DNA from: a virus
DNA length: 64,000 nucleotides
Direction: 5' to 3' (one strand)
Virus record (IMG/VR): IMGVR_UViG_3300045988_020586
Positions 5,860 through 43,951 of this stretch are shown here, in pieces. Made by a program: the position numbers and the translations under genes. Numbering within the stretch: position 1 is the first letter of the stretch; every line of letters begins with the position of its first letter. The notes below the pieces were generated by a model. That model saw only the letters and a program-made list of their open reading frames with translations. It searched no databases and had not been told where the DNA came from.

Positions 5860-6700
5860 CGGGAGGGTGTGGACGTGAGGGGAGTCGACAAAATCTTCAA
5901 GTTCATTGCAACTATTCCACTCTGCTCCACGTTATATTTATATGGAACAGATAAAGAAATATATGCAAAACAGAAAGTTAATAACTTTCGTTTGTGATTG
6001 TTGTGGAAAAGAAGCTCAAAAACCTCTTTCCGAATACAACAGAAACAAGAAACTTGGTAGGAAGAATTTTTGTAGTAGAAGTTGTGCAATTCGTTATGCT
6101 AATAAAAATAAATTACATACATTTACAGATAAATGTAGAGAACATCTTTTAAGTATTTGCAACAATCAAATAGACGAATATACCGATTTTAGATATATCC
6201 TTAGAAGTGTCTATAAAAGATTTAAAGAAGTAGATATAGATTTAGAGTATCTAAAACAACTTTGGGAGACACAAAAAGGAATTTGCCCTTATACTGGTAT
6301 AAAATTAAAGCTTCCAACATATAAAAGCCATAACTTCTATTTTGATTGTGCATCTTTAGACAGAATAGATTCTTCTAAAGGCTACGTTAAAGGAAATGTT
6401 CAATTCATATCATTACCTATAAATTATATGAAATCTACTAAATCAGATATTGAAATCAGACAATTTCTTAAACAAATTTCTTCTTACACTTCACATTTCT
6501 GCGAAGATGAGACTATCTCTTCACCTAAAGAGGTGTTGGGCGCTCGAGCTGGTAATTAAGAAGACTATACTTCTCCAGTAGTCGTTGCACTTTCTTGTGG
6601 TGTACCACAAGCTTAGCTCAGGGTTAGCATGAACAATACTAGCTTTGAGCTATTATTGTTTTTAGCCTTCCTTGAATTCACCCAATATGGGCTCGGTAAG
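5860..6700 (+). mobile_element. group I intron-like element carrying an HNH ORF; boundaries and host exons unresolved
   Basis: P7-like GAGACTA 6509-6515 and TAGTC 6579-6583, flanking hairpins CACCT-AAAG-AGGTG and AGAAG/CTTCT. P9-like CTTGTGG-TGTA-CCACAAG 6594-6611. Same layout as the two splicing-competent introns in this window. Confidence 0.35.
5942..6559 (+). CDS. HNH-family homing endonuclease
   Basis: Zn-ribbon-like CDCCGKE...CSRSC at the N-terminus. C-terminal ASLDRIDSSKGYVKGNVQFIS motif typical of phage HNH endonucleases. ATG at 5942 (the track ORF begins at 5906). No in-frame TAG. Confidence 0.75.
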   Translation: MEQIKKYMQNRKLITFVCDCCGKEAQKPLSEYNRNKKLGRKNFCSRSCAIRYANKNKLHTFTDKCREHLLSICNNQIDEYTDFRYILRSVYKRFKEVDIDLEYLKQLWETQKGICPYTGIKLKLPTYKSHNFYFDCASLDRIDSSKGYVKGNVQFISLPINYMKSTKSDIEIRQFLKQISSYTSHFCEDETISSPKEVLGARAGN

Positions 6701-6897
6701 AACCCCTGTCCAAACAGATTATTTCATACACACTGTACATTTGTTTTGTAAATGTCCTGATGATCAGTCAGAACATTTGATTTAAACCACTTTAGGTGCG
6801 TTCTAAGGCATTTTTGCGACACTTGTGGTTAATTACTCCACTCGGTGACATACTCTGCCTCAGAATGCATTAGAACATGGTTGAAAATATATAGGAA

Positions 6898-13253: not shown

Positions 13254-13370
13254 TGAGGTCTATTCGCGCTTTGAGTAATGAATCAGACTACACCATGATG
13301 CAACATGTGTAGTTTCGTCTAGGTCTCATCAGTGATGATTTTAGACTCTCCCTAGCTGAGTTTAAATAAA

Positions 13371-20476: not shown

Positions 20477-20795
20477 GATTACGCCCGATTTTGTAATCTC
20501 GACCAGTTTGCTGGAATTAGTCGTTAAATATAGTAAACCAGCCGGTATTGCACCAGATGCCGTTATTTGTCTGGCGAAGACAAAGACACGAAGGAGGTCC
20601 AGCTTATTGGTGAGGCTAAACCAATCCCTTCCTGGTAGGGGTTAGATACCATTTGAGTGGCATCCCTGTGTGTACACTATAAATAAAAGGCTTCCATTGT
20701 AAGCTGACACAGGGACCCAATACTGGTTCTGCGTAACTCCAGCTAAAGGTTACGTGCTTATATCGAATGGGGTGCAGGTGGCAATACCTCATTAG
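20477..20795 (+). ncRNA. ~320-nt GC-richer structured element between two tRNA genes (class unknown, strand assumed)
   Basis: No ORF. Helices GATTAC/GTAATC, CCAG-TTTG-CTGG, ATTGG/CCAAT, and long-range CCCTGTGT/ACACAGGG. Flanked by AT-rich direct repeats 20442-20460 and 20804-20821. Confidence 0.35.
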
Positions 20796-20885
20796 ATATT
20801 TTCATCATAAAAATGAATTTATTTTAATAGGTCGCATGAGTTTTGCGAAATAGTTTTGTGTGTTTCTATAAAAAATACACAATAT

Positions 20886-20956
20886 CGCGGGATGGTGAAA
20901 TGGTATCACGTGTGGCTCATAACCATAGATTGCTAGTTCGACTCTAGCTCCCGCAA
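20886..20956 (+). tRNA. tRNA-Met-like (anticodon CAU), C1-A72 mismatch
   Basis: Acceptor CGCGGGA/TCCCGCA with an unpaired first position as in bacterial initiator tRNA. Anticodon arm TGTGG-CTCATAA-CCATA (CAT at 20918-20920). T-arm GCTAG-TTCGACT-CTAGC. Confidence 0.8.
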
Positions 20957-21174
20957 CACTGAGCTTCGATTGTGTGGTGTTCTACATATTTGGCCACCAG
21001 GAGCGAAATTGATATCAGAAAAATATGTCGGCTACAATGGTTTAAAGTGTAGCAATGTAGTTTTAGGCAGATAAAAAGCTCGGTAGCCTAAGGTGAGCTT
21101 CTACAATATTGCCCATTCGCGTACCAGCTAGCGCACCGGGCTCTTTTGTCCAATGAATAATTGAATATATAATA

Positions 21175-22077
21175 ATGGAAAATAAAATATATAAACTCTC
21201 AGACGAACAGTTTGTTGAGTTACTCAAGAAAAGTTCAACAATATCTGAAGTGTTGTTTAAACTTGGTTATACAGTTAAAGGAAACTCTTGGGGATATTCC
21301 CAAGTAAAAAGAAGAATGGATGATCTGAATTTAGACTATTCTATATTCAAAGGCAAATCAGCTGTTATAAAAACAACCAAGTTAAACAATGTAAAGAAGG
21401 AAGATATACTAAAGAAAAATTGTAGGCATCAGCGTACAGTACTAAGGAGATACGTTATTAAAAATAATTTAATCCCATACAAATGCGCGATATGCGGATG
21501 CACCGAATGGCAAGGAAAAACATTAAGCTTGGAACTTGATCATATAAATGGTGTAAACAATGACAATAGATTAGAAAACCTTAGGTTTTTATGCCCTAAT
21601 TGTCATAGTCAAACTTCAACGTATGGAAGCAGAAATCAGCAACTTAATAGTTCTGAATATGATATCCCAGACGATTTAAGAAAGATGGTTGAAGAGAAGT
21701 ATGATGAAGTTAAAAGTGTTAAAAGAGTATCATCAATACTTGGAATACGAAGATGCGTTGTTACAAAAATAGTTAATGAATCAGGTCAAAAACATTCTAA
21801 TCAAAAGTATATAATAAGGTACGATAAAGATTGGAATGAGCTCGCAAGATACGGTTCTCTCGTAGAAGCTGCCAAAGCTTTAATAGAAGCTAATGAAGTT
21901 AAAACAAAGCGAGTAAAGACTTGTACTAGAACTATAATGTACAATAAAGATAATTTTTGGTTGAACAGTCATTGGAAAATATTGGATGGTAGCGGGATAA
22001 TAAATAATCCGCTATTAGAACCTTCTCTAATTGACTCGGAAGACACTGTTGACGAGGCGCAAGCGAAAGCAGCGTGA
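21175..22077 (+). CDS. HNH homing endonuclease with C-terminal NUMOD/IENR-like DNA-binding region
   Basis: 300 aa with LELDHINGVNNDNRLENLRFLCPNCH. No in-frame TAG. The 3' end overlaps a group I core. Confidence 0.85.
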   Translation: MENKIYKLSDEQFVELLKKSSTISEVLFKLGYTVKGNSWGYSQVKRRMDDLNLDYSIFKGKSAVIKTTKLNNVKKEDILKKNCRHQRTVLRRYVIKNNLIPYKCAICGCTEWQGKTLSLELDHINGVNNDNRLENLRFLCPNCHSQTSTYGSRNQQLNSSEYDIPDDLRKMVEEKYDEVKSVKRVSSILGIRRCVVTKIVNESGQKHSNQKYIIRYDKDWNELARYGSLVEAAKALIEANEVKTKRVKTCTRTIMYNKDNFWLNSHWKILDGSGIINNPLLEPSLIDSEDTVDEAQAKAA

Positions 22078-22190
22078 CAGACTAAACGAGAAGGCTGACC
22101 TTAGGGTTGGATGCAATAGTCGAGCTAATGAACCCCGGGGGAGTGGGGGCAGCACCTACATGGGCGACAATAATTAAACAATATTATAAA
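22017..22190 (+). mobile_element. group I intron catalytic-core-like segment (host exons not identified)
   Basis: P3 candidate CCTTCTC 22021-22027 / GAGAAGG 22088-22094. P7 candidate CAGACTA 22078-22084 and TAGTCG 22117-22122. P8-like CTGACC-TTAG-GGTTGG. The string CAGACTAAA...ATAGTCG resembles the canonical Tetrahymena core. Confidence 0.45.
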
Positions 22191-22194
22191 TACT

Positions 22195-22446
22195 ATGGAG
22201 TTAAAATTTAAGAGACTTGAGGACGAAGCGGTCCTCCCTATTCGTAGCACAGAAGGTGCTGCAGGAATTGATTTGACATGCATTAAGATTGATACAGCTC
22301 TTAATGAAGCAAATCAGCTAATGTTGGTTTACCATACAGGATTGGCAGTTGAGATTCCTGCCGGATATGTTGGTTTACTTATACCACGCTCTAGTATTTG
22401 GAAGAAATCATTATGGCTTACTGATAATGTTGGAGTGATTGACGCT
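22195..22446 (+). CDS. dut: dUTPase, exon 1
   Basis: Motif I AGIDL, motif II IPRSS, and the first half of motif III GVIDA. The standard-code ORF then runs into the intron and stops at 22467. Confidence 0.8.
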
Positions 22447-23375
22447 AGAATATTGATACGTTATTGAGTATCAATGCAACCAACTCTATTCGCATATCGT
22501 TATGATGATATAACTAAACACAAAATATCATGATAACAAAAATTTGCAAACAATGTGGTAAGGAATTTGATGTACCAGAATACAGAAAGGATGCTAAATA
22601 CTGCTGTGACGAATGTAAACACAAAGCACTGCATGGAGATTTAAATTGTGAGTGTGAGGTTTGTGGCAAGAAATTCCACTTAAAACCATACGCTCTTAAA
22701 AAGAGTAAACATCATACATGTAGCCGCGAGTGTTTAAACAAACTTAAAAGTACATTATATAAAGGTGAAGGAAATCATCAATATGGTCTAAAAGGCGATA
22801 AGAATTCATCTTTCAAAGGAAACGTAATCCTGCGTAAGAACAATGGACTAATCGAGAGAATGATCTACAATCCTAGACACCCATACGCTGATCGTAATGG
22901 TAGGATTAAGGAACACAGATTAATAGTTGAGCAGAATTACAAAATGTTTGACGATAAATACTTTGAAGTTATAAACGGAGAGCATTATTTAAAGAAGAAT
23001 GTAGATGTACATCACATTAACTTTAATCATAACGATAATAGAATAGAAAACCTAATTCCCTTGACTAGAGCGGAACATACAAAGCTTCATAACCAAAATG
23101 AAGTTATATACAGAAATGAGAAGGGAATGATAATTGGTGTCTTAAAACAGGGTGAATTGCTGGAAAAGCCTGAAGAGGTCAATCAGCAGCCAAGCTTGGG
23201 TAGTGATACCCTTGAAGGTTCAGAGACTAACAGCCGAGTCTTACGAGACAGTAATGCTGACACGAGTGCCCTGCCCGGAAACGGTGAAGATATAGTCCGA
23301 TCTACTGATAACAAAATAAACAGTAGAAATATAGAGATAAAGAGCTCTATAGATTAACAACTCCTAATTTTGTTG
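22447..23375 (+). mobile_element. group I intron in dUTPase gene (junctions +/- a few nt)
   Basis: Splits motif III GVIDA|DYRGEI. Exon 1 ends in T and the intron ends in G. Core strings CAGAGACTA 23221-23229 and GATATAGTCC 23289-23298; GNRA hairpin CCG-GAAA-CGG. Contains an HNH ORF. Confidence 0.7.
22530..23357 (+). CDS. intron-encoded HNH homing endonuclease
   Basis: 275 aa. Cys-rich N-terminus and VHHINFNHNDNRIENLIPLTRAEHTKLH. No in-frame TAG. Confidence 0.85.
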   Translation: MITKICKQCGKEFDVPEYRKDAKYCCDECKHKALHGDLNCECEVCGKKFHLKPYALKKSKHHTCSRECLNKLKSTLYKGEGNHQYGLKGDKNSSFKGNVILRKNNGLIERMIYNPRHPYADRNGRIKEHRLIVEQNYKMFDDKYFEVINGEHYLKKNVDVHHINFNHNDNRIENLIPLTRAEHTKLHNQNEVIYRNEKGMIIGVLKQGELLEKPEEVNQQPSLGSDTLEGSETNSRVLRDSNADTSALPGNGEDIVRSTDNKINSRNIEIKSSID

Positions 23376-23669
23376 GATTATAGAGGAGAGATTATAGCTA
23401 TAATGAAAGCCACAACAGATGTGGTTCCTGCTATTTATAAGCAGGGCGAGCGCTTCTGTCAGTTGGTCATAGTTCCGGTGCCAGAATACGAGGTTACAGA
23501 AGTGTCTGAGCTTTCTGATACAAAACGAGGCGAGAATGGCTTTGGTTCAACTGGTACCGATAATAAGGAAGTTAGCGCAGCTGCGGGAACTGAGGCACAG
23601 GCTAGCGAACAGCCACAGTCCGTACCAGAGCAAGCGGCGGCACAAGATGGTGCTGAGGTAGGTGAGTGA
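23376..23669 (+). CDS. dut: dUTPase, exon 2
   Basis: DYRGEI (motif III), GERFCQLV (motif IV), RGENGFGSTG (motif V), then an Ala/Gln/Glu-rich tail; TGA stop. Confidence 0.8.
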   Translation, partial: DYRGEIIAIMKATTDVVPAIYKQGERFCQLVIVPVPEYEVTEVSELSDTKRGENGFGSTGTDNKEVSAAAGTEAQASEQPQSVPEQAAAQDGAEVGE

Positions 23670-23755
23670 CAAGCTTGACGATCCTACATAAAGGGGATTA
23701 CCGAAAGGTAGTTCCCTTTTACTGTTTATATATAAACAATATAGTATTAAATAAT

Positions 23756-31926: not shown

Positions 31927-33990
31927 ATGATAGACTTTAATTAGAAGCTCCATAATACTGATAAGTTCAGATAGGCAGCTATTTTTTTTGAAAAGCATGG
32001 GTGCTACACTTTAGCTCCAAGAGGTACTACTGATTATAAGAAATATTGGGACCAGGAAACAGAAAGGTGCCTAAATGGTTATACGGCTCCAGATGGAGAA
32101 GGTATAACAGGTTATAACTATTTTTATCTGAATTATAGTCCTATCTTTAAGCTTGTAGAAACAGAGTACACTGACAGAAACGGAGATATAAGAAAAAGAA
32201 GAGAGCGTGTGCTTTAGTTCCCTAGTTTTTGGGATTACGATTATTATTATTTTTGTGCTATAGAAGAAGCCGAGCAACAAGGCAAACATATGGCTGTTCT
32301 AAAATCAAGACAAAGAGGATACAGTTTCAAAGGAGCTTCTATGCTCGTAAGAAACTATATGCTTATTCCTGGATCAAAGAACTTTGCTGTAGCTTCGGAG
32401 TAGAAGTTTCTTGTAGGAGATGGATTGCTTACAAAAGCTTGGTAGATAATGGACTTCCTTGACAAACATACAGAATGGGCGAAACAAAGACTTGTATCAA
32501 CTCGTATGGAAAGAGTTTCTGGTTATAAAGTTACAGATGAATTTGGAAAACAAACTGAACAGGGATACCTTTCTAGTATAGTTGGAATAACACTTAAGAA
32601 CGACCCTGAACGTATCCGTGGTACTCGTGGTAAACTTGTACTATGGGAGGAGGGAGGTAAGTTTCCGGACCTTCTTGATGCATGGCGTATTGAATAGCCT
32701 TCTGTAGAAACTGATGATGGTGTAGCATTTGGATTGATGATAGCGTTTGGAACTGGAGGTACGATAGGTGCAAGTTTCGAAGGACTAAAAGAATTATTTT
32801 ATAAGCCTAATGCTAATAATGTACTAGCATTCCCTAACATATGGGATGATGGTAGAGAGAATACAGAATGCGGATTCTTTGTTCCAGCTTATTCAAATCT
32901 AGAATCATTTGATGATGACGGAAATCAAAGGTTCATGGACAAAGATGGTAATAGCCTAAAAGAGTTAGCTATACAAAATTTAATAGACCAAAGAAACAAA
33001 ATAAAAGACGGTGGTGCTAGCTAGCAATCTATAGACCGTTTTATATCAGAACGTCCTATGAAGCCAGCAGAAGCAGTATTGGAGCTTGGTAAGAACATAT
33101 TCCCTAGAAAACTATTAATGGACTAGTTGACCAGAATAAGGACAAACAAGAAGCTTCAAAGTATGAAGCATATAGTTGATCTAGAATGGGATGGAAATGG
33201 TCAAGTAAAGGCTACAGAAAAGCCTAGTGGGGATATAACTAACTACCCTCTTAAGAAAGGCGACAAACCTCATGGATCCGTAGTTATATGGGAGTACCCA
33301 GTAAAGGATCCTCCGCTTGGATTATATATAGGAGGATGTGATCCATACGACCACGATGACAGCTTTACAAACTCTCTTGGTTCTACATTTATATTTAAGC
33401 GTGTAAGAGCTGGAGAAGCTTGGACCGATGTAATAGTAGCAGAGTATTCTGGAAGACCAGATACGGCAGAAGAATACTACGAGAATGTACGTAAACTACT
33501 TACGTTTTATAATGCTAGATTATTGTTTGAGAATGAAAGAAAAGGAATCTACCCTTACTTTACGAATAAACACTGCGATTACCTCTTGGCTGATTAGCCA
33601 GATAAAATCATATCTGAAGTCTTCAAAGACAGTAAAGTACAAAGAAGAAAAGGATGCCACATGACCAAATAGATTAGGGCATATGGCGAAGGATTAATAT
33701 TAGAGTGGCTATTAGACGAGTTTGAAGAAGGCCACCCTAATGTAGAAAGAGTATACAGCGAACCTCTAATAGAAGAGCTTATAGAGAACGATGGTGTACG
33801 AAATGTAGACCGTGTGATAGCTTTGTGTATGGTAATGATATACAGAGAGGAGCTCTATTAGGTAAAGGTGTCGTCTGCAAAAGAACAAAACAAATAGGTT
33901 GAACTCTTCGAGATGCCGTTATTTAGCAAACAATGGTTTGAAGAAGATAGCAGCACAAGTGAAGACGGTATGCCGATATTCACATTTTAA
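31927..33990 (+). CDS. terL: terminase large subunit
   Basis: One frame across track ORFs 32449-32697, 32734-33024 and 33127-33597, linked by TAG. Typical TerL-like ATPase and nuclease-region sequence (…LKSRQRGYSFKGAS…, …GGCDPYDHDD…, …YNARLLFENERKG…). Sits directly before the portal gene. Confidence 0.85.
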
Positions 33991-33993
33991 TAC

Positions 33994-36900
33994 ATGGAAG
34001 ATAACTTATACAATTCAGCTTTCCCCAGACAAAAGCTCCCTCTTTCAAAGAAAGGAAAGAAGTGGCAGGAGGATTGCGTTAACTATATTATAGGTGAAGG
34101 TAACGTAACATCTGGAGGAAATAGTACATCATATTACGGAGAGCTGTAGACCTATTATAACTTATATAACAGCATCTTCGACGAGAAGGATTTTAAATCA
34201 ATTACAAACCCATTCAAGGTCGAGGATGGTTTTCCTGCTACTCCTCATGACTTTAATATTATAAGACCTAAAGTAGACTTACTTATAGGCGAGGAGACAA
34301 AAAGACCTCTTAACTTCAGAGTTATCAGAACTTCATAGGAGGCCACATCAGAAATGCAGGAGAAAGAGAAGTAGATGATACTACAATATATAGAAGCAGC
34401 TATCACAGCTAGAATGAGCCCGGAAGAAGCTCAGTAGTTCCAGGAGCAGCTATAGTTTGGAGAGGTTATGCCGCCAGAATAGATAGCTAAGTATATGGAT
34501 AAGGACTACAAAGATATTGTAGAGAATACTGCATATCATTCACTTACCTATCTGAGAGAAAAGCTTGATCTTGACAATGAGTTTATCAAAGGCTGGAAAG
34601 ATGGATTGATCTCAGGTAGAGAAATTTATTACGTTGGTGTGCTTAATGCAGAGCCATATGCCGAAAGAGTTAATCCTATATGTTTCTCTTACGACAAGAG
34701 TCCAGACCTTGAGTTTATTGAGGATGGTTCATGGTGCTGTAGAAAGATGCGTATGCCTATAACTGAAGTATACGACAGATATTACGATAAGCTTGAAGAG
34801 AAAGATCTTGATAAGCTTGAAGAAATGATTGGTTCTACTCCTGGTAGAAACCTTGGAGACAGAAGCCCTGTTGATATGGGTATACAGTTACGTATATACG
34901 ACAACCCAATATTCGAAGGATCCGGCAAATCACTTGTAAACGTATGGCATTGCTGTTGGAAATCTTTCAAAAAGATATTCTACGTAACTACTACAGATGA
35001 AGCAGGATAGCCTTAGATTAACATAGTTGATGAAACATATCAGCCTGTTGGTAATGAGGTTAGCGTAGAACCAGATTGGATTATAGAAGTATGGGAGGGA
35101 TATAGAGCTGGTAGCGACTTATACTTTGGTATATAGCCTATTGAATACCAGCATGTAAGTATTGATAATCCTAATAGTCAGAAGCTTCCTTATTGTGGAG
35201 CTATTTATAGCAATACAAATAGTAAGCCTAGATCATTGGTTAGCATTCTTAAGCCATTACAGTATATGTATATTGTACTGTGGTACAGACTTGAGTTAGC
35301 TATTGCTAGAGATAAAGGTAAGGTTGTTAATATGGATATTACATAGATTCCTAAGTCTATGAATATTAGCCCAGCTAAATGGATGCATTACTTATCTAGT
35401 GTCGGTGTTAACTTTATTAATCCATACGAAGAAGGCTGGTGTTTCGATCCAGAAACGCTTGTGGCTACACCTAGTGGTAATACTAAGATGAATGATATTA
35501 GATTAGGATAGTTTGTATATACTCCTGGTCACCATCTAGCTTAGGTTACAAATCTTTTCCATGGAGAAGATGAGATGTACAACATAATACCATCTATAGG
35601 GTCTAATGTTTAGAAAGTTACAGCTAATCACTTGGTTAGGTATAGATATAGAATAAACGGACATTCCGATTCTGAAGTAAGAGTAGATAAAGCTAAAGAT
35701 CTTATGCTTAAATTTAAGCAAAATAAGTATTACGCACAGAGATGTTTCCTTGAGAGAGAAGATAATTTCTTTGATCCTAAGGAACCTAGTAAATTTGGTG
35801 GAAGAGATATGTATTTGCTTGGGCTTTGGCTTGGAGGTGGTACAAAGAATACTCCTGAATTTGAATCTATGGATCCTGAAATAATACAGTATCTTGAGGA
35901 TTATGCTTGTACGCACGGATTAAGATGTTCTTATAGACATAAGAATGGTAGCAGATCAATGACAATTAGACTTAGCTCTGTTAACAACAAAAAGAAAGGA
36001 TAGGCTTTCTTGAATCCATTTATAGAAGATCTTAGATATTTCGGCGTATACGATAACAAAGAAGTAAGCGGTTTGCATATAGATAATATTGATGACGCTT
36101 TAAACTTCTTAGCGGGATTAATAGATACTGATGGAAGCGTATTTAAAGGAAACGGAAATCATAAAGGGTATGTAGAATTTACACAATGTGAATCACATAA
36201 AGATATATTTGATTTATTCGTTGACTTGGCGAGAAAATTAGGATATAGAGTATCTGTAAAGAGAAAAGAATCAGTTGTTAAGAAGATATACAAAAATAAG
36301 ACTATAACTATTTATGAACCTTTCTATAAAGCTAGAATATTTGATGGGAACTATGATATACCTACAAAGATAGAAAGAAAGAAATTTCATTTTACATAGG
36401 GTAGAGTATATAATAAGAACTATTCACATTTCAAGATAGAATACGCTGGCAGAGGTGAATATTACGGATTTGCTATTGATGATCCAAAGCATGAATTCTT
36501 ACTCTCTGATATGACAATAGTTCATAACTGTATCCCAGGAAGAGAAGGTGGTAAGCCTGCGCAGTTTAATCAGATAACGGCATTGGATCTTACAATGTCT
36601 AATGTCATAGCTGAATATATCCAGCTTATGGACAAGATAGAATAGCTTGCTGGAACTATCTCTGGTATTACAGCACAACGCGAAGGAGCTGTAAGCTCAT
36701 CAGAAATGGTAGGTAACGTAGAGAGATCTGTAGTACAGAGCTCGCATATTACTGAGCCGTTGTTCTGGGTTCATAACCAGTGTAAGCGAAGAGTGCTTAA
36801 TATGCTTCTCAATACAGCTAAAGGTGCTTGGGAAGAGACCGGTAAGCAGAAGCTTCAATATATCTTTGATAATGGAGAAAGAGCGTTCTTGGATATTACT

Positions 36901-37554
36901 CCTAAGTTCTACTACGAGGATATGGATGTATTCGTAAGTGATACATCTAAAGACCTTGAGAATATACAGAAACTTCAGCAGCTTATACAGCCAGCTATGC
37001 AGAATGGCGCAAGCTTACTTGAAGCAGCAGAGGTTCTTACAAACGACAACTTCAATATCATTAAGCAGAAGCTTAAGGATATGTAGACTAGACAGTAGCA
37101 GATGTAGCAACAGCAGCAGGAGGCAGAAGCTCAGCAGCAACAGCAGTTACAGCAGATGCAGAACGAAGCTAAACAGCAGGAGCTTATGTTGCAGGAAGCT
37201 CAGATGGATCTTCAGAGATACCAGATTGACCAAGATAATCAGACTAAGATAGCTGTAGCACAGATTAACGCTTATCGTGGAACAGAGGAATTAGATCAGG
37301 ATCAAAACGGAATCCCAGACCCAATCGAAATCGGAAAGCAAGCTATTGAGCAGCAGAAGATTAATCAGGAGGCTTACAACAAGCGTTACGAAGCAAAACA
37401 GAAGCGCGAGATAGAAGACTAGAAGATTTAGCTTGAGAAGGATAAGATGAAGCATGAGACAGAGCTATAGAAGGCAAAGGACGATGCTGCTTACGAACGC
37501 GAGAAACTTAAGGCAAAGACAGCTATCAAAAATAGGGTTCCGGGAGAGAAGTAA
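33994..37554 (+). CDS. portal protein (extein) interrupted by an in-frame intein
   Basis: One frame across track ORFs 34495-35010, 35632-36003, 36010-36399, 36706-37086 and the 37156-37422 region. Located after terL. Poly-Gln/coiled C-terminus. TAA at 37552-37554. Confidence 0.8.
35440..36528 (+). mobile_element. intein with LAGLIDADG homing-endonuclease domain inside the portal protein
   Basis: Starts with Cys (W|CFDPETLVATPSG), block B TANH, LAGLIDADG motifs LLGLWLGGGT and FLAGLIDTDGSV, and ends ...TIVHN|C. 363 codons in frame, including in-frame TAGs. Confidence 0.8.
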
Positions 37555-41537: not shown

Positions 41538-41921
41538 ATGAATAATTCAAGTTCTTTATTAAATAATCTTCAGCTCTACCGTGGTAAGCGTTTTGCTGAC
41601 TTGGTAGACGAAAACATGATTGCTAATGCAATGCTTACAAAGCCTCATGAAGTAGCAGGCTTGTTGTCATTGGTTTTTGGTACAAAGGATGATGGTATTT
41701 CAACTACCATCGACTTGTTAACTGGTGGTCTTGGTTCAACCATGACTATCGAAAACAGAGAGTATGAGTGGTCTGTAATGATTGATGCTGACCACGCTGT
41801 TAATATCCGCTATGCTAAGTGGAATGGCAAGGAGATCACTCCTAAGTCAATTACAGACGGTTTGACCCCAGGTATTAATAATACTCCTATTTATCTTGGT
41901 CTTGAGGAGAAATGGTTCGGT
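41538..41921 (+). CDS. major capsid protein, exon 1
   Basis: 128 codons ending …LGLEEKWFG. The track ORF continues only 6 codons into the intron. Confidence 0.75.
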
Positions 41922-42802
41922 GGGTTCTATAGCGCATAACCTGTGCCGCCTTTTATAGTAATATAAATTGAAAAATCCAGAGAATTGCTGGAAACTCCTA
42001 AAGAATTTTATACCCTAGAGTTATAAATAAAATTATAGATATATGAATAATATAAAAAATGGACAATCAGCAGCCGAGCAAGGCTACTAGATGAAAGACA
42101 TACCGGGATGGGAAGGTCTTTACGCATGTACAACACATGGTGATATTTGGTCATATAGAAGTGATAAGTTTTTATCGCCAAGTAAAAATAAAAGAGGTTA
42201 TCTACACGTTACTTTTACAAAAGATGGCAAAAGATACGATTATAGAGTCAATAGACTTGTAGCTATGACATTTCTAGATAACCCAAACAATTTGCCACAA
42301 GTAAACCATATAGATGGAAACAAATTGAATAATTATCTATCTAATCTAGAATGGTGCACACCAGAATATAATATACAACACGGAAAGGAACACGGATTGT
42401 TTAAAGGACATTGCTTTAATCCTCCAATACATACAAAAGATGGTCCACAAGTTGCATATGTATTTACTAATGTTTATAATGGGGCGCAGTTCACCATATA
42501 TGGTTTTAAAGCTTTGAGGAAGCAATTTAGAATAAGTGGTTATACTTATGGGTTGATTCAAAAACATGCGAACACAGGAGACTATATTAAAGCTGGATTG
42601 CTTAAAGGTCTTCGTGTTGACAAAGTAGACTTGAAGGTTCATCGACTAACCGCTAACCACGGTGTAGGGTCAAGTGACCCGAAGTACTGGAAACCCTTTC
42701 TTTAGGGTTGTGATATAGTCAATTCTTCATCGAAAGATGAAGCTGCTAGCGAGAATGCCATAGCTAGCGATTCGGAATTAACGACTCCGAGTGAATAAAA
42801 AG
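41922..42802 (+). mobile_element. group I intron in the major capsid protein gene (junctions +/- ~15 nt)
   Basis: Frame shifts from 0 to 2 across it. Exon 1 ends in T and the intron ends in G. Core strings CGACTAA 42643-42649 and GATATAGTC 42712-42720; GNRA hairpin CTTCATC-GAAA-GATGAAG 42725-42742. Contains an HNH ORF. Confidence 0.7.
42091..42705 (+). CDS. intron-encoded HNH/NUMOD4-type homing endonuclease
   Basis: 204 aa. IPGWEGLYACTTHGDIWS (NUMOD4-like) and VNHIDGNKLNNYLSNLEWCTPEYN (HNH_3-like). The stop codon is TAG. Confidence 0.85.
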   Translation: MKDIPGWEGLYACTTHGDIWSYRSDKFLSPSKNKRGYLHVTFTKDGKRYDYRVNRLVAMTFLDNPNNLPQVNHIDGNKLNNYLSNLEWCTPEYNIQHGKEHGLFKGHCFNPPIHTKDGPQVAYVFTNVYNGAQFTIYGFKALRKQFRISGYTYGLIQKHANTGDYIKAGLLKGLRVDKVDLKVHRLTANHGVGSSDPKYWKPFL

Positions 42803-43951
42803 CCAGGCGCTATTTTGGCATTTGACAACGTAAACTTCCAGGTACGTGTAAACGGTACTCCATATCAGGATGGTAGCACATGGGTATATGAGTGCTACGT
42901 AGCAGAAGGCTTCCAGGGTTCTTATATTCCTTGTGAGTATTTGCTCCCAGGTCGTCAGGTAGATCGTATCGGTTCTGCATACGAGGAGTACAGTGATGAG
43001 GCAGATATCATCAACTATCAGACTCCATTTAAGATGCGTAATAGCTTGATGACTATGCGTCTTACTTACGATATCACCGGTGATGCTTACTCTACAGTAT
43101 TGGCTATCGCTTTGACTGATCCTGAGACAGGCAAGAAGTCTTATTTGTGGTCTGACTATCAGTATTGGAAGGCTCTTCGTGAGTGGAAGAAGAGAGAGGA
43201 GAAGCAGTTGCTGTTCGCTCACTCTAACCGTAATGCAGATGGTACTTATAATCTGAAGGGTACTAATGGTCGTTTCGTTCCAATCTCTGCAGGTTTGTTC
43301 GAGCAGATTGCTCCAGCTAACGTACGTTACTATACAAAGCTGACTACAGAGTTGTTTGAGGATTACCTGTTCGACCTCTGCTATAATATCATCGGTACTA
43401 ACGAGCGTAAGTTTGTTGCCTTGACTGGTGAGATGGGTATCCGTGAGTTCGACCGTATCTTGAAGGAGAAGGCAGCTAGCTTCAATATGATTGACACACA
43501 CTTCATTACAGGTTCTGGTCAGGATCTGAAGTTGGGTGGTCAGTTCACAACTTACACTATGACTAATGGTATTGAGTTGACAGTTAAGCGTTGCGCTATG
43601 TTTGATAACATGGAGATGTTCCGTCAGCTTCACCCATTGACAGGTAAGCCATTGATGTCTTACACATTCTTGTTCGTTGATCTTGGTCGTCGTGATGGTC
43701 AGGCTAACATCGTTAAGGTATGTCGTAAGGGTCGTGAGTTCGTACAGTGGTGTACTGGTGGTTCTGTATTGCCAAATGGTTATGCAAACAACATCAATAC
43801 TATGCGTTCTAACAGCCGTGATGGTTACCAGGTACACTTCCTTGGTGAAGAGGGTATCATGTTGAGAAACCCATTGTCATGTGGTATCTTGTACTGTGAT
43901 GCTGAAGACCAGGAGTCTATTGCAGTTGAGAATAGAGCAGCAGAGCTCTAA
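42803..43951 (+). CDS. major capsid protein, exon 2
   Basis: 382 codons with no in-frame TAG. Strong codon bias gives a 357-aa antisense shadow ORF. Position after the scaffold-like gene. Sequence resembles crAss-like MCPs from memory. Confidence 0.75.
   Translation, partial: PGAILAFDNVNFQVRVNGTPYQDGSTWVYECYVAEGFQGSYIPCEYLLPGRQVDRIGSAYEEYSDEADIINYQTPFKMRNSLMTMRLTYDITGDAYSTVLAIALTDPETGKKSYLWSDYQYWKALREWKKREEKQLLFAHSNRNADGTYNLKGTNGRFVPISAGLFEQIAPANVRYYTKLTTELFEDYLFDLCYNIIGTNERKFVALTGEMGIREFDRILKEKAASFNMIDTHFITGSGQDLKLGGQFTTYTMTNGIELTVKRCAMFDNMEMFRQLHPLTGKPLMSYTFLFVDLGRRDGQANIVKVCRKGREFVQWCTGGSVLPNGYANNINTMRSNSRDGYQVHFLGEEGIMLRNPLSCGILYCDAEDQESIAVENRAAEL

Follow-up and report, generated by a model that had tools for sequence, protein, structure and literature searches.

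A likely PI-SceI-type intein with a probably disabled LAGLIDADG endonuclease in the TAG-recoded portal gene of a crAss-like phage

According to the searchable text of Yutin et al. (2021, PMC7886860), members of the crAss-like Delta group (now Suoliviridae) typically carry an intein in TerL; that text and the searchable text of a 2023 Crassvirales review mention inteins for TerL only and no Crassvirales portal intein, the supplementary maps existing as figures only. Portal inteins are known from mycobacteriophages and other actinophages, where they fall into several polyphyletic groups (Kelley et al. 2016, PMC5050341; 2025 survey, bioRxiv 10.1101/2025.01.02.630785). In the yeast intein PI-SceI, the metal of the active site is bound by Asp218 and Asp326, both described as critical to the endonuclease (PMC1508164). 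Here we describe an intein in the portal gene of a virus recorded in IMG/VR (IMGVR_UViG_3300045988_020586), of which a stretch of 64,000 nucleotides, hereafter the window, was analysed; all features of the portal gene lie on the plus strand. It is very likely that the element is a canonical class-1, PI-SceI-type intein with an embedded LAGLIDADG endonuclease in a portal gene recoded for TAG, belonging to a mobile family and with an endonuclease that is probably disabled in the window copy. Its anatomy, precise insertion, homology, code usage, and population pattern were observed, and splicing, homing, and the loss of endonuclease activity are inferred here from sequence.

When TAG is read as a sense codon, the frame holding position 35440 is open for 1187 codons (33991–37554), with ATG at 33994 and closure at TAA; the portal protein precursor gene (33994–37554) comprises 1186 codons plus TAA with TAG as Gln, and all of its in-frame stops (22/22) are TAG. 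The N-extein (33994–35439; 482 residues) ends in ...VNFINPYEEGW and aligns without gaps to the portals of the Burzaovirus phages cr7_1 and cr124_1 (Suoliviridae, Crassvirales; human faeces). It is followed directly by the intein (35440–36528; 363 codons, Cys1 to His362–Asn363), which begins with Cys (CFDPETLVATPSG..., in translations of 35200–36800 and 35440–36528) and consists of a Hint domain with an embedded double-motif LAGLIDADG endonuclease. The block A nucleophile Cys1 (TGT, 35440–35442) is invariant in all portal-intein homologues and aligns to Cys1 of PI-SceI. Block B is T61-A-N-H64 (TxxH; 35620–35631), in which His64 is invariant in the family alignment and the Thr is found in five of six portal inteins. 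LAGLIDADG motif 1 (LLGLWLGGGT, residues 126–135; 35815–35844) contains Gly133, encoded by GGT at 35836–35838, and motif 2 (FLAGLIDTDGSV, residues 223–234; 36106–36141) retains Asp231, the counterpart of PI-SceI Asp326. Block G consists of His362–Asn363 and the Cys at the +1 position (36523–36531; TGT at 36529–36531). The C-terminal end of the intein, ...EYYGFAIDDPKHEFLLSDMTIVH362-N363 followed by C+1, aligns to PI-SceI ...DYYGITL..HQFLLANQVVVHN|C, and Cys1, His64, His362, and Asn363 are invariant across the alignment of six portal inteins. The C-extein (36529–37554; 341 residues plus stop) starts with CIPGREGGKPAQFNQ..., and the predicted spliced junction peptide is NPYEEGWCIPGR. A preliminary description of this DNA had proposed a 363-codon in-frame insert at 35440–36528 with Cys1, TANH, two LAGLIDADG-type motifs, and ...MTIVHN followed by CIPGREGG; the insert is borne out and every one of these elements is present in the translation where it had been placed, with the qualification that motif 1, recognizable as it is, lacks the catalytic Asp in the window genome only.

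The precision of the insertion is documented by alleles without the intein. A megablast search of the portal gene against phage records retrieved cr7_1 and cr124_1, which align in two pieces, together spanning 68% of the query, with a nucleotide identity of ~92%. Their annotated portals have 823 residues, align gaplessly to the spliced extein of the window at 96% amino-acid identity, and are short by exactly the 363 codons of the intein, with the junction ...NPYEEGW|NIPGREGG.... The alignment to these intein-less portals, which had been suggested as a check of precise insertion, is ungapped across the junction. The empty-site DNA of cr7_1 reads ...CCATACGAAGAAGGTTGG|AATATCCCAGGAAGAGAGGG, also given as AACTTTATTAACCCATACGAAGAAGGTTGG|AATATCCCAGGAAGAGAGGGCGG. 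At the +1 codon, the two empty alleles have AAT (Asn) and the window has TGT (Cys), which indicates that the splicing nucleophile at +1 arrived with the intein; the mature portal of the window phage should, as read from the alignment, carry an Asn-to-Cys substitution relative to its intein-free relatives.

The identity of the host protein and of the insert was assessed by profile searches. The spliced extein (823 residues) matches the portal family PHROG 6547 over residues 6–800 in a single stretch (E, 4e-161) and the portal gp20 of PhicrAss001 (PDB entry 7QOG; E, 3e-82), a level well above chance; the proposal that the portal reads on coherently on both sides of the insert is thus confirmed by an uninterrupted family match. 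The insert alone scored above the cut-offs of the Pfam models Hom_end (PF05204; 41.5 bits; cut-off, 21.1; E, 1.6e-10) and LAGLIDADG_3 (PF14528; 29.1 bits; cut-off, 22.5; E, 1.2e-6), and the search against PHROGs gave weak matches only, to a terminase family that evidently includes inteins. Among solved structures, the single intein sequence matched the yeast VMA1 intein PI-SceI with E of ~1e-16. A profile built from six portal inteins aligned residues 1–67 to 1–67 and residues 85–365 to 160–454 of PI-SceI (E, 3.5e-32), and also matched Prp8 inteins in the N-terminal half. As judged by this profile comparison, the intein family resembles PI-SceI in the two halves of the Hint domain as well as in the core of the endonuclease. 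The canonical Cys1/His-Asn/Cys+1 LAGLIDADG architecture put forward in the preliminary description is supported by the Pfam matches and the PI-SceI homology; the two findings that it had named as decisive against an intein were not made, as the portal homologues have no integral domain corresponding to the segment, and Hint and endonuclease homology is present. A regular-expression scan of the window found no second LAGLIDADG element.

The insertion site lies in a portal motif of high conservation, NPYEEGW^(N/D)IPGREGGKP, in this Burzaovirus-like gut crAss phage (Suoliviridae), and corresponds by sequence alignment to the position between T495 and I496 of PhicrAss001 gp20. In the canonical portal fold, the segment between the stem helices is the clip. 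In other tailed phages, the clip also contacts terminase during packaging, which provides an analogy for the present site. In PhicrAss001, the clip contacts the tail barrel, the inner stem helix spans residues 519–541, and the tunnel loops span residues 550–563 (PMC10172136). Based on the gp20 alignment and these helix ranges, the site would be located ~23 residues before the inner stem helix, between two stem helices. The portal tunnel loop was considered as the insertion site and rejected, because the same alignment and ranges place it ~55–70 residues downstream (PMC10172136). An insert of 42 kDa in each of the twelve subunits should be incompatible with assembly, so that splicing is presumably obligatory. 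In the proposed mechanism, the portal would be translated late as a precursor of 1186 residues with TAG read as Gln, including five TAGs within the intein. An N–S acyl shift at Cys1 would be followed by acyl transfer to Cys+1, cyclization of Asn363, and then an S–N shift, yielding a portal of 823 residues with Cys in place of the Asn of relatives. The family would be mobile now or until very recently by endonuclease-mediated homing among co-infecting gut crAss-like phages, and the window element, whose splicing residues are untouched, would persist only through retained splicing.

The distribution of the intein was surveyed at the protein and DNA levels. A search of 5.8 billion proteins retrieved fragments only, as expected, because TAG is called as a stop in the source gene calls. 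After the genes were rebuilt with TAG as sense, four metagenomic contigs (~100 kb or shorter) were found to carry the intein at the identical site, and a profile-guided scan of IMG/VR identified 471 related stretches, the top matches including copies with 98, 95, 94, 94, and 87% identity. One of the intein fragments (P0001, from JGI contig Ga0453052_0355628; L005 6001–6915) bears the name 'replicative DNA helicase' in its source. When the junctions were classified, the related inteins of Crassvirales fell into three insertion sites, all inside a single portal motif of 15 residues: site a, NPYE|intein|(C/S/T)GW(N/D)IPGREGG, 3 residues upstream of the window's site; site b, that of the window, NPYEEGW|intein|(C/S)IPGREGG; and site c, IPGREGGK|intein|S(A/S)xFNQ, 9 residues downstream of the window's site. 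At each of the three, the native residue is replaced by the +1 nucleophile. Site c includes the RefSeq phage cr118_1 (L003, NC_055872, 3001–4062), whose intein-bearing coding sequence of 1195 residues is annotated only as 'portal protein'. In a neighbour-joining tree without bootstrap, the inteins cluster by site, with a and b as sisters and c nearer to terminase-hosted inteins, and each site clade includes both recoded and standard-code hosts. Among the 80 IMG/VR portals nearest to that of the window, only two have the intein, both on contigs already found, and in ~73 the allele is empty and intact, N or D occupying the +1 position. Across 64 distinct empty alleles, the insertion point falls into the most conserved 30-nucleotide bin of the surrounding 600 nucleotides, the contrast with neighbouring bins being modest.

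Evidence for recent movement of the family comes from comparison of the window with the IMG/VR contig 3300045988_013227 (L008). The two inteins differ at 5 of 1089 nucleotides (99.5% identity), whereas the N-exteins are 97.4% and the C-exteins 91.2% identical; the difference between intein and C-extein (5/1089 versus 90/1026 mismatches) is highly significant (Fisher p, 3e-23). The near-identical tract with its 5 mismatches runs from 35212 to 36545, extending 228 nucleotides upstream and 17 nucleotides downstream of the intein with the breakpoint 18 nucleotides past it, and is a probable homing or co-conversion tract; beyond it, mismatches return at 6–8 per 100 nucleotides. A similar pattern is seen in other carrier pairs, with inteins at ~92% and flanks at 83–89% identity. 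Since the synonymous sites of the flanks have diverged, the similarity of the inteins reflects recent shared ancestry and not selection. We interpret the pattern as homing with short co-conversion tracts, or as an equivalent recombination event. This signature, sporadic presence and an element closer than its flanks, applies to the intein family and not necessarily to the mutated copy of the window.

The intein is written in the same code as its host gene. In the window scanned with TAG as sense, a minus-strand block at 1–18 kb is essentially TAG-free, and the plus-strand late block from ~23.7 kb contains genes with up to 41 in-frame TAGs. Five TAGs are located inside the intein (35509, 35542, 35611, 36001, and 36397). 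The TAGs of the exteins are mostly common to cr7_1 and cr124_1, and the eight sites that differ have CAG/CAA in six cases and GAG/GAA in two; among eight close copies of the intein, six of eight polymorphic TAG positions have a CAG/CAA counterpart. This interchange points to turnover between TAG and Gln codons within the intein in situ. The claim that the intein carries in-frame TAGs in the host gene's code is upheld by the alignment of TAG to CAG/CAA in both extein and intein, and so is the contrast drawn with the HNH endonucleases of the window, whose three open reading frames (21175–22077, 22530–23357, and 42091–42705) are all TAG-free. The homologous portal inteins of standard-code relatives (e.g. 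cr118_1) have no TAG at all. Per Gln codon, the TAG share in eleven other recoded lineages is 12.5% in the intein and 14.5% in the host gene (p, 0.76), and in the window's own clade the intein is the higher of the two (5 of 9 Gln codons versus 17 of 73). By this measure the intein has come into full equilibrium with the late code, as would be expected of a sequence that is translated within its host protein. The idea that inteins are TAG-depleted relative to the host gene, as if newly arrived from standard-code phages, had arisen from raw counts (0–2 TAGs per intein versus 8–16 per extein in most other recoded carriers) and was rejected after normalization to Gln codons, the apparent depletion being due to the lower Gln content of the intein. 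At codon 193 of the intein of IMGVR_UViG_3300045988_082615 (L012), a TAG stands where all seven other copies have Pro (CCG/CCA), the only TAG of the set without a Gln or Lys codon counterpart.

These observations on the code could be taken further. It may be proposed that the genetic code gates the life cycle of the intein family, code reassignment being a one-way valve that divides up intein gene flow among gut Crassvirales, the three neighbouring sites in the clip region representing repeated re-invasions, and the window copy just entering the decay phase of the homing cycle. The homing endonuclease would then be made only late, once TAG is read as Gln, and TAG-bearing copies would spread among recoded phages only, since in a relative with the standard code they would cut the portal short. 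We regard this proposal as tentative and, taken as a whole, rather doubtful.

The window copy differs from its relatives in the endonuclease. Motif 1 reads G(L/V)W(L/I)GDG in more than 30 relatives including L008, the exception being a small terminase-hosted group with GNG, whereas the window has GLWLGGG; codon 133 is GGT instead of the GAT/GAC of relatives, and Gly133 is unique to the window. In the profile alignment, residue 133 corresponds to PI-SceI Asp218, while Asp231 (Asp326) and Lys207 (Lys301) are retained. Of the two LAGLIDADG helices, in each of which a terminal metal-binding acidic residue is typical, that of motif 2 ends in one and that of motif 1 does not. Two other private non-synonymous changes (K18N and S292Y) and at most one synonymous change have occurred in the intein of the window lineage. 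Because the single-base change from GAT to GGT removes the metal-binding Asp of motif 1, the window endonuclease has probably been disabled very recently, or is down to single-strand nicking; the intein appears to be a LAGLIDADG endonuclease by descent with one active site that is probably catalytically defective.

Several points weigh against this reading or parts of it. D133G could reflect a mistake of assembly or sequencing, or a minority variant, and some LAGLIDADG enzymes retain nicking activity with one dead site. For the single sequence, Pfam Hom_end_hint scored 30.4 bits against a cut-off of 32.1 and Hint_2 gave a weak match, also below its cut-off, so that the Hint assignment depends on the profile comparison and the catalytic blocks; of the Pfam check called for in the preliminary description, the Hom_end and LAGLIDADG_3 part succeeded and the Hint part fell short. 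A search of the insert against NCBIfam gave no match. The clip placement is inferred from sequence alignment and published residue numbers, not from coordinates. In the extein flanks of the window there is no long co-conversion tract from L004, the nearest sequenced donor-like allele; an L004-like donor tract was rejected, since the flanks keep to the haplotype of the empty Burzaovirus alleles as far as the junction, and L008 proved to be the informative partner. Finally, no suppressor tRNA with a CTA anticodon was found in the window, ~40% of the genome lying outside it; ARAGORN, run permissively on the window to find a suppressor tRNA that is hidden or contains an intron, gave noise only, and an exact-pattern scan with the suppressor arm of cr7_1 did not match the intein-bearing contigs and was uninformative. 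On the supporting side for the code, in cr7_1 and cr124_1 an identical tRNA with anticodon CTA (amber suppressor, annotated as tRNA-Gln) is located directly upstream of the dUTPase gene. The syntenic gap of the window (20761–22167) contains a tRNA(CAT) at 20886–20957 with a C1–A72 mismatch and the TAG-free HNH open reading frame at 21175–22077; the slot that holds the suppressor tRNA in close relatives is filled by another tRNA and an HNH gene despite late genes full of TAG.

Three alternative explanations were weighed against a splicing intein with a probably disabled endonuclease. The intein may be fully active, splicing and still making double-strand breaks, with Gly133 tolerated because a neighbouring acidic residue or water binds the metal, and may now be invading empty Burzaovirus portals. 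Asp231 and Lys207 are indeed intact, the very recent transfer of the element is clear, and its rarity among the nearest relatives fits an element still spreading, but the Asp is kept in more than 30 homologues including the nearly identical L008, the equivalent PI-SceI residue is described as critical, and three private non-synonymous versus at most one synonymous change hint at relaxed constraint; we consider full activity improbable. Slightly less probable still is that Gly133 stems from a fault of assembly or sequencing, or from a minority variant, the actual population having Asp and an intact endonuclease while the rest of the interpretation stands: the difference from the 99.5%-identical sequence is a single base (GGT versus GAT) and the source is presumably a metagenome assembly, but K18N and S292Y in the same 1089 nucleotides suggest real lineage divergence, and the surrounding sequence gives no sign of low quality. 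That the segment is no intein at all, but an integral or accessory portal domain or a dead insertion kept in the mature protein, or that the TAGs are true stops in a portal pseudogene, is highly implausible even with the Hint models under their curated cut-offs and no suppressor tRNA in the window, as ~73 of the 80 closest portals precisely lack the segment, the four splicing blocks are all conserved and undamaged, PI-SceI is matched by the family profile over the two halves of the Hint domain, TAGs occur throughout the late genes aligned to Gln codons, and an unspliced 42 kDa insert in the clip of a dodecameric portal would be unlikely to be tolerated.

Other genes of the window, and possibly of its relatives, appear to be interrupted as well. 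The dUTPase gene is apparently split (22167–23728), its halves matching the cr7_1 dUTPase at 22167–22443 and 23376–23728, and the ~0.9 kb insertion between them contains an HNH_3 open reading frame (22530–23357, TAG-free) and an Rfam group I intron match (23077–23318, 65 bits). The gene of the major capsid protein is interrupted (41538–43951): exon 1 (41538–41939) corresponds to positions 2–120 of the Crass_capsid profile and the 3' part, with a frame open from 42782, to positions 121–495. The capsid gap of ~0.86 kb encodes an endonuclease with NUMOD4 and HNH_3 (42091–42705), with a TAG right before its ATG and termination at TAG, and gave no Rfam intron match at the gathering threshold. The capsid open reading frames 41538–41939 and 43034–43951 are both without TAG, though located within the TAG-rich late block. 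The early region on the minus strand contains another group I intron (Rfam RF00028, 81 bits; 6489–6781, minus strand), the second of the window, and a RAGATH-1 hammerhead ribozyme (RF03152, 71.9 bits; 13281–13362, minus strand). In cr7_1 (L001 1–3000), the TerL coding sequence has 2535 nucleotides versus 2064 in cr124_1, with an unannotated gap of ~830 nucleotides before the portal gene, and L004 has an open reading frame matching LAGLIDADG_3 (1822–2592) in the TerL region upstream of the portal. These features of the cr7_1 and L004 sequences suggest TerL inteins in relatives, as reported for the crAss-like family.

The finding leaves the principles of inteins and of recoding unchanged and would not surprise a specialist. 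Its value lies in showing cleanly, in a natural case, a mobile parasite at the protein level in full equilibrium with a reassigned stop codon, and in population evidence for recent homing among abundant human-gut phages, with one copy that has only just lost a catalytic residue. Through its hot spot of three sites, a short portal motif stands out as functionally critical. There is also a practical side: standard-code annotation pipelines break the portal gene into fragments, and, the portal being a standard marker for Crassvirales phylogeny, inteins that go unrecognized at the three sites can skew both alignments and gene calling.

Among described systems, PI-SceI (Saccharomyces cerevisiae VMA1; PDB entries 1VDE, 1DFA, and 1LWS) is likewise a class-1 intein with Cys1, the block B His, His-Asn, and Cys+1, and shares with the window intein the embedded double-motif LAGLIDADG endonuclease (LLGLWxGDG/FLAGLIDxDG). 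The two have ~25–30% identity, and the window intein is shorter (363 versus 454 residues), lacking PI-SceI residues ~68–159. The insertion formed by these residues contributes to DNA recognition. The window intein is unlike PI-SceI in being hosted by a phage portal and not a V-ATPase, in reading TAG as Gln, and in having Gly at the position of Asp218. The TerL inteins of Yutin et al. (PMC7886860), as far as described in its searchable text and Fig. 7b, occur in the same phage family, in a late packaging gene, and with multiple TAGs in the extein as well as the intein; outside portals, the window intein has its nearest relatives among terminase-hosted inteins. The host differs, TerL there and the portal here; TerL of the window (31927–33990, 687 codons) has the same length as the intein-free TerL of cr124_1. 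The portal inteins of actinobacteriophages are alike in their LAGLIDADG endonucleases, their sporadic distribution, and their several independent groups or insertion sites, and differ, by description, in an unrelated portal family, in hosts among the Actinobacteria versus presumably Bacteroidota, and in the standard code. The portal intein of cr118_1 (NC_055872, Besingivirus coli), also of the Suoliviridae, has 36% identity, the same length class and blocks, and the same conserved portal motif, but its insertion point lies 9 residues further downstream (GREGGK|C...HN|S), and its +1 residue is Ser; the cr118_1 portal has no TAG codons, so its code is standard, and its intein belongs to another neighbour-joining clade, nearer to the TerL inteins. 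Altogether, the type of element, its mechanism, and its coexistence with TAG recoding in the crAss-like phage family are already established, and what is new in detail is the portal as host gene, the hot spot of three sites, the footprint of homing, and the fresh mutation of a catalytic residue.

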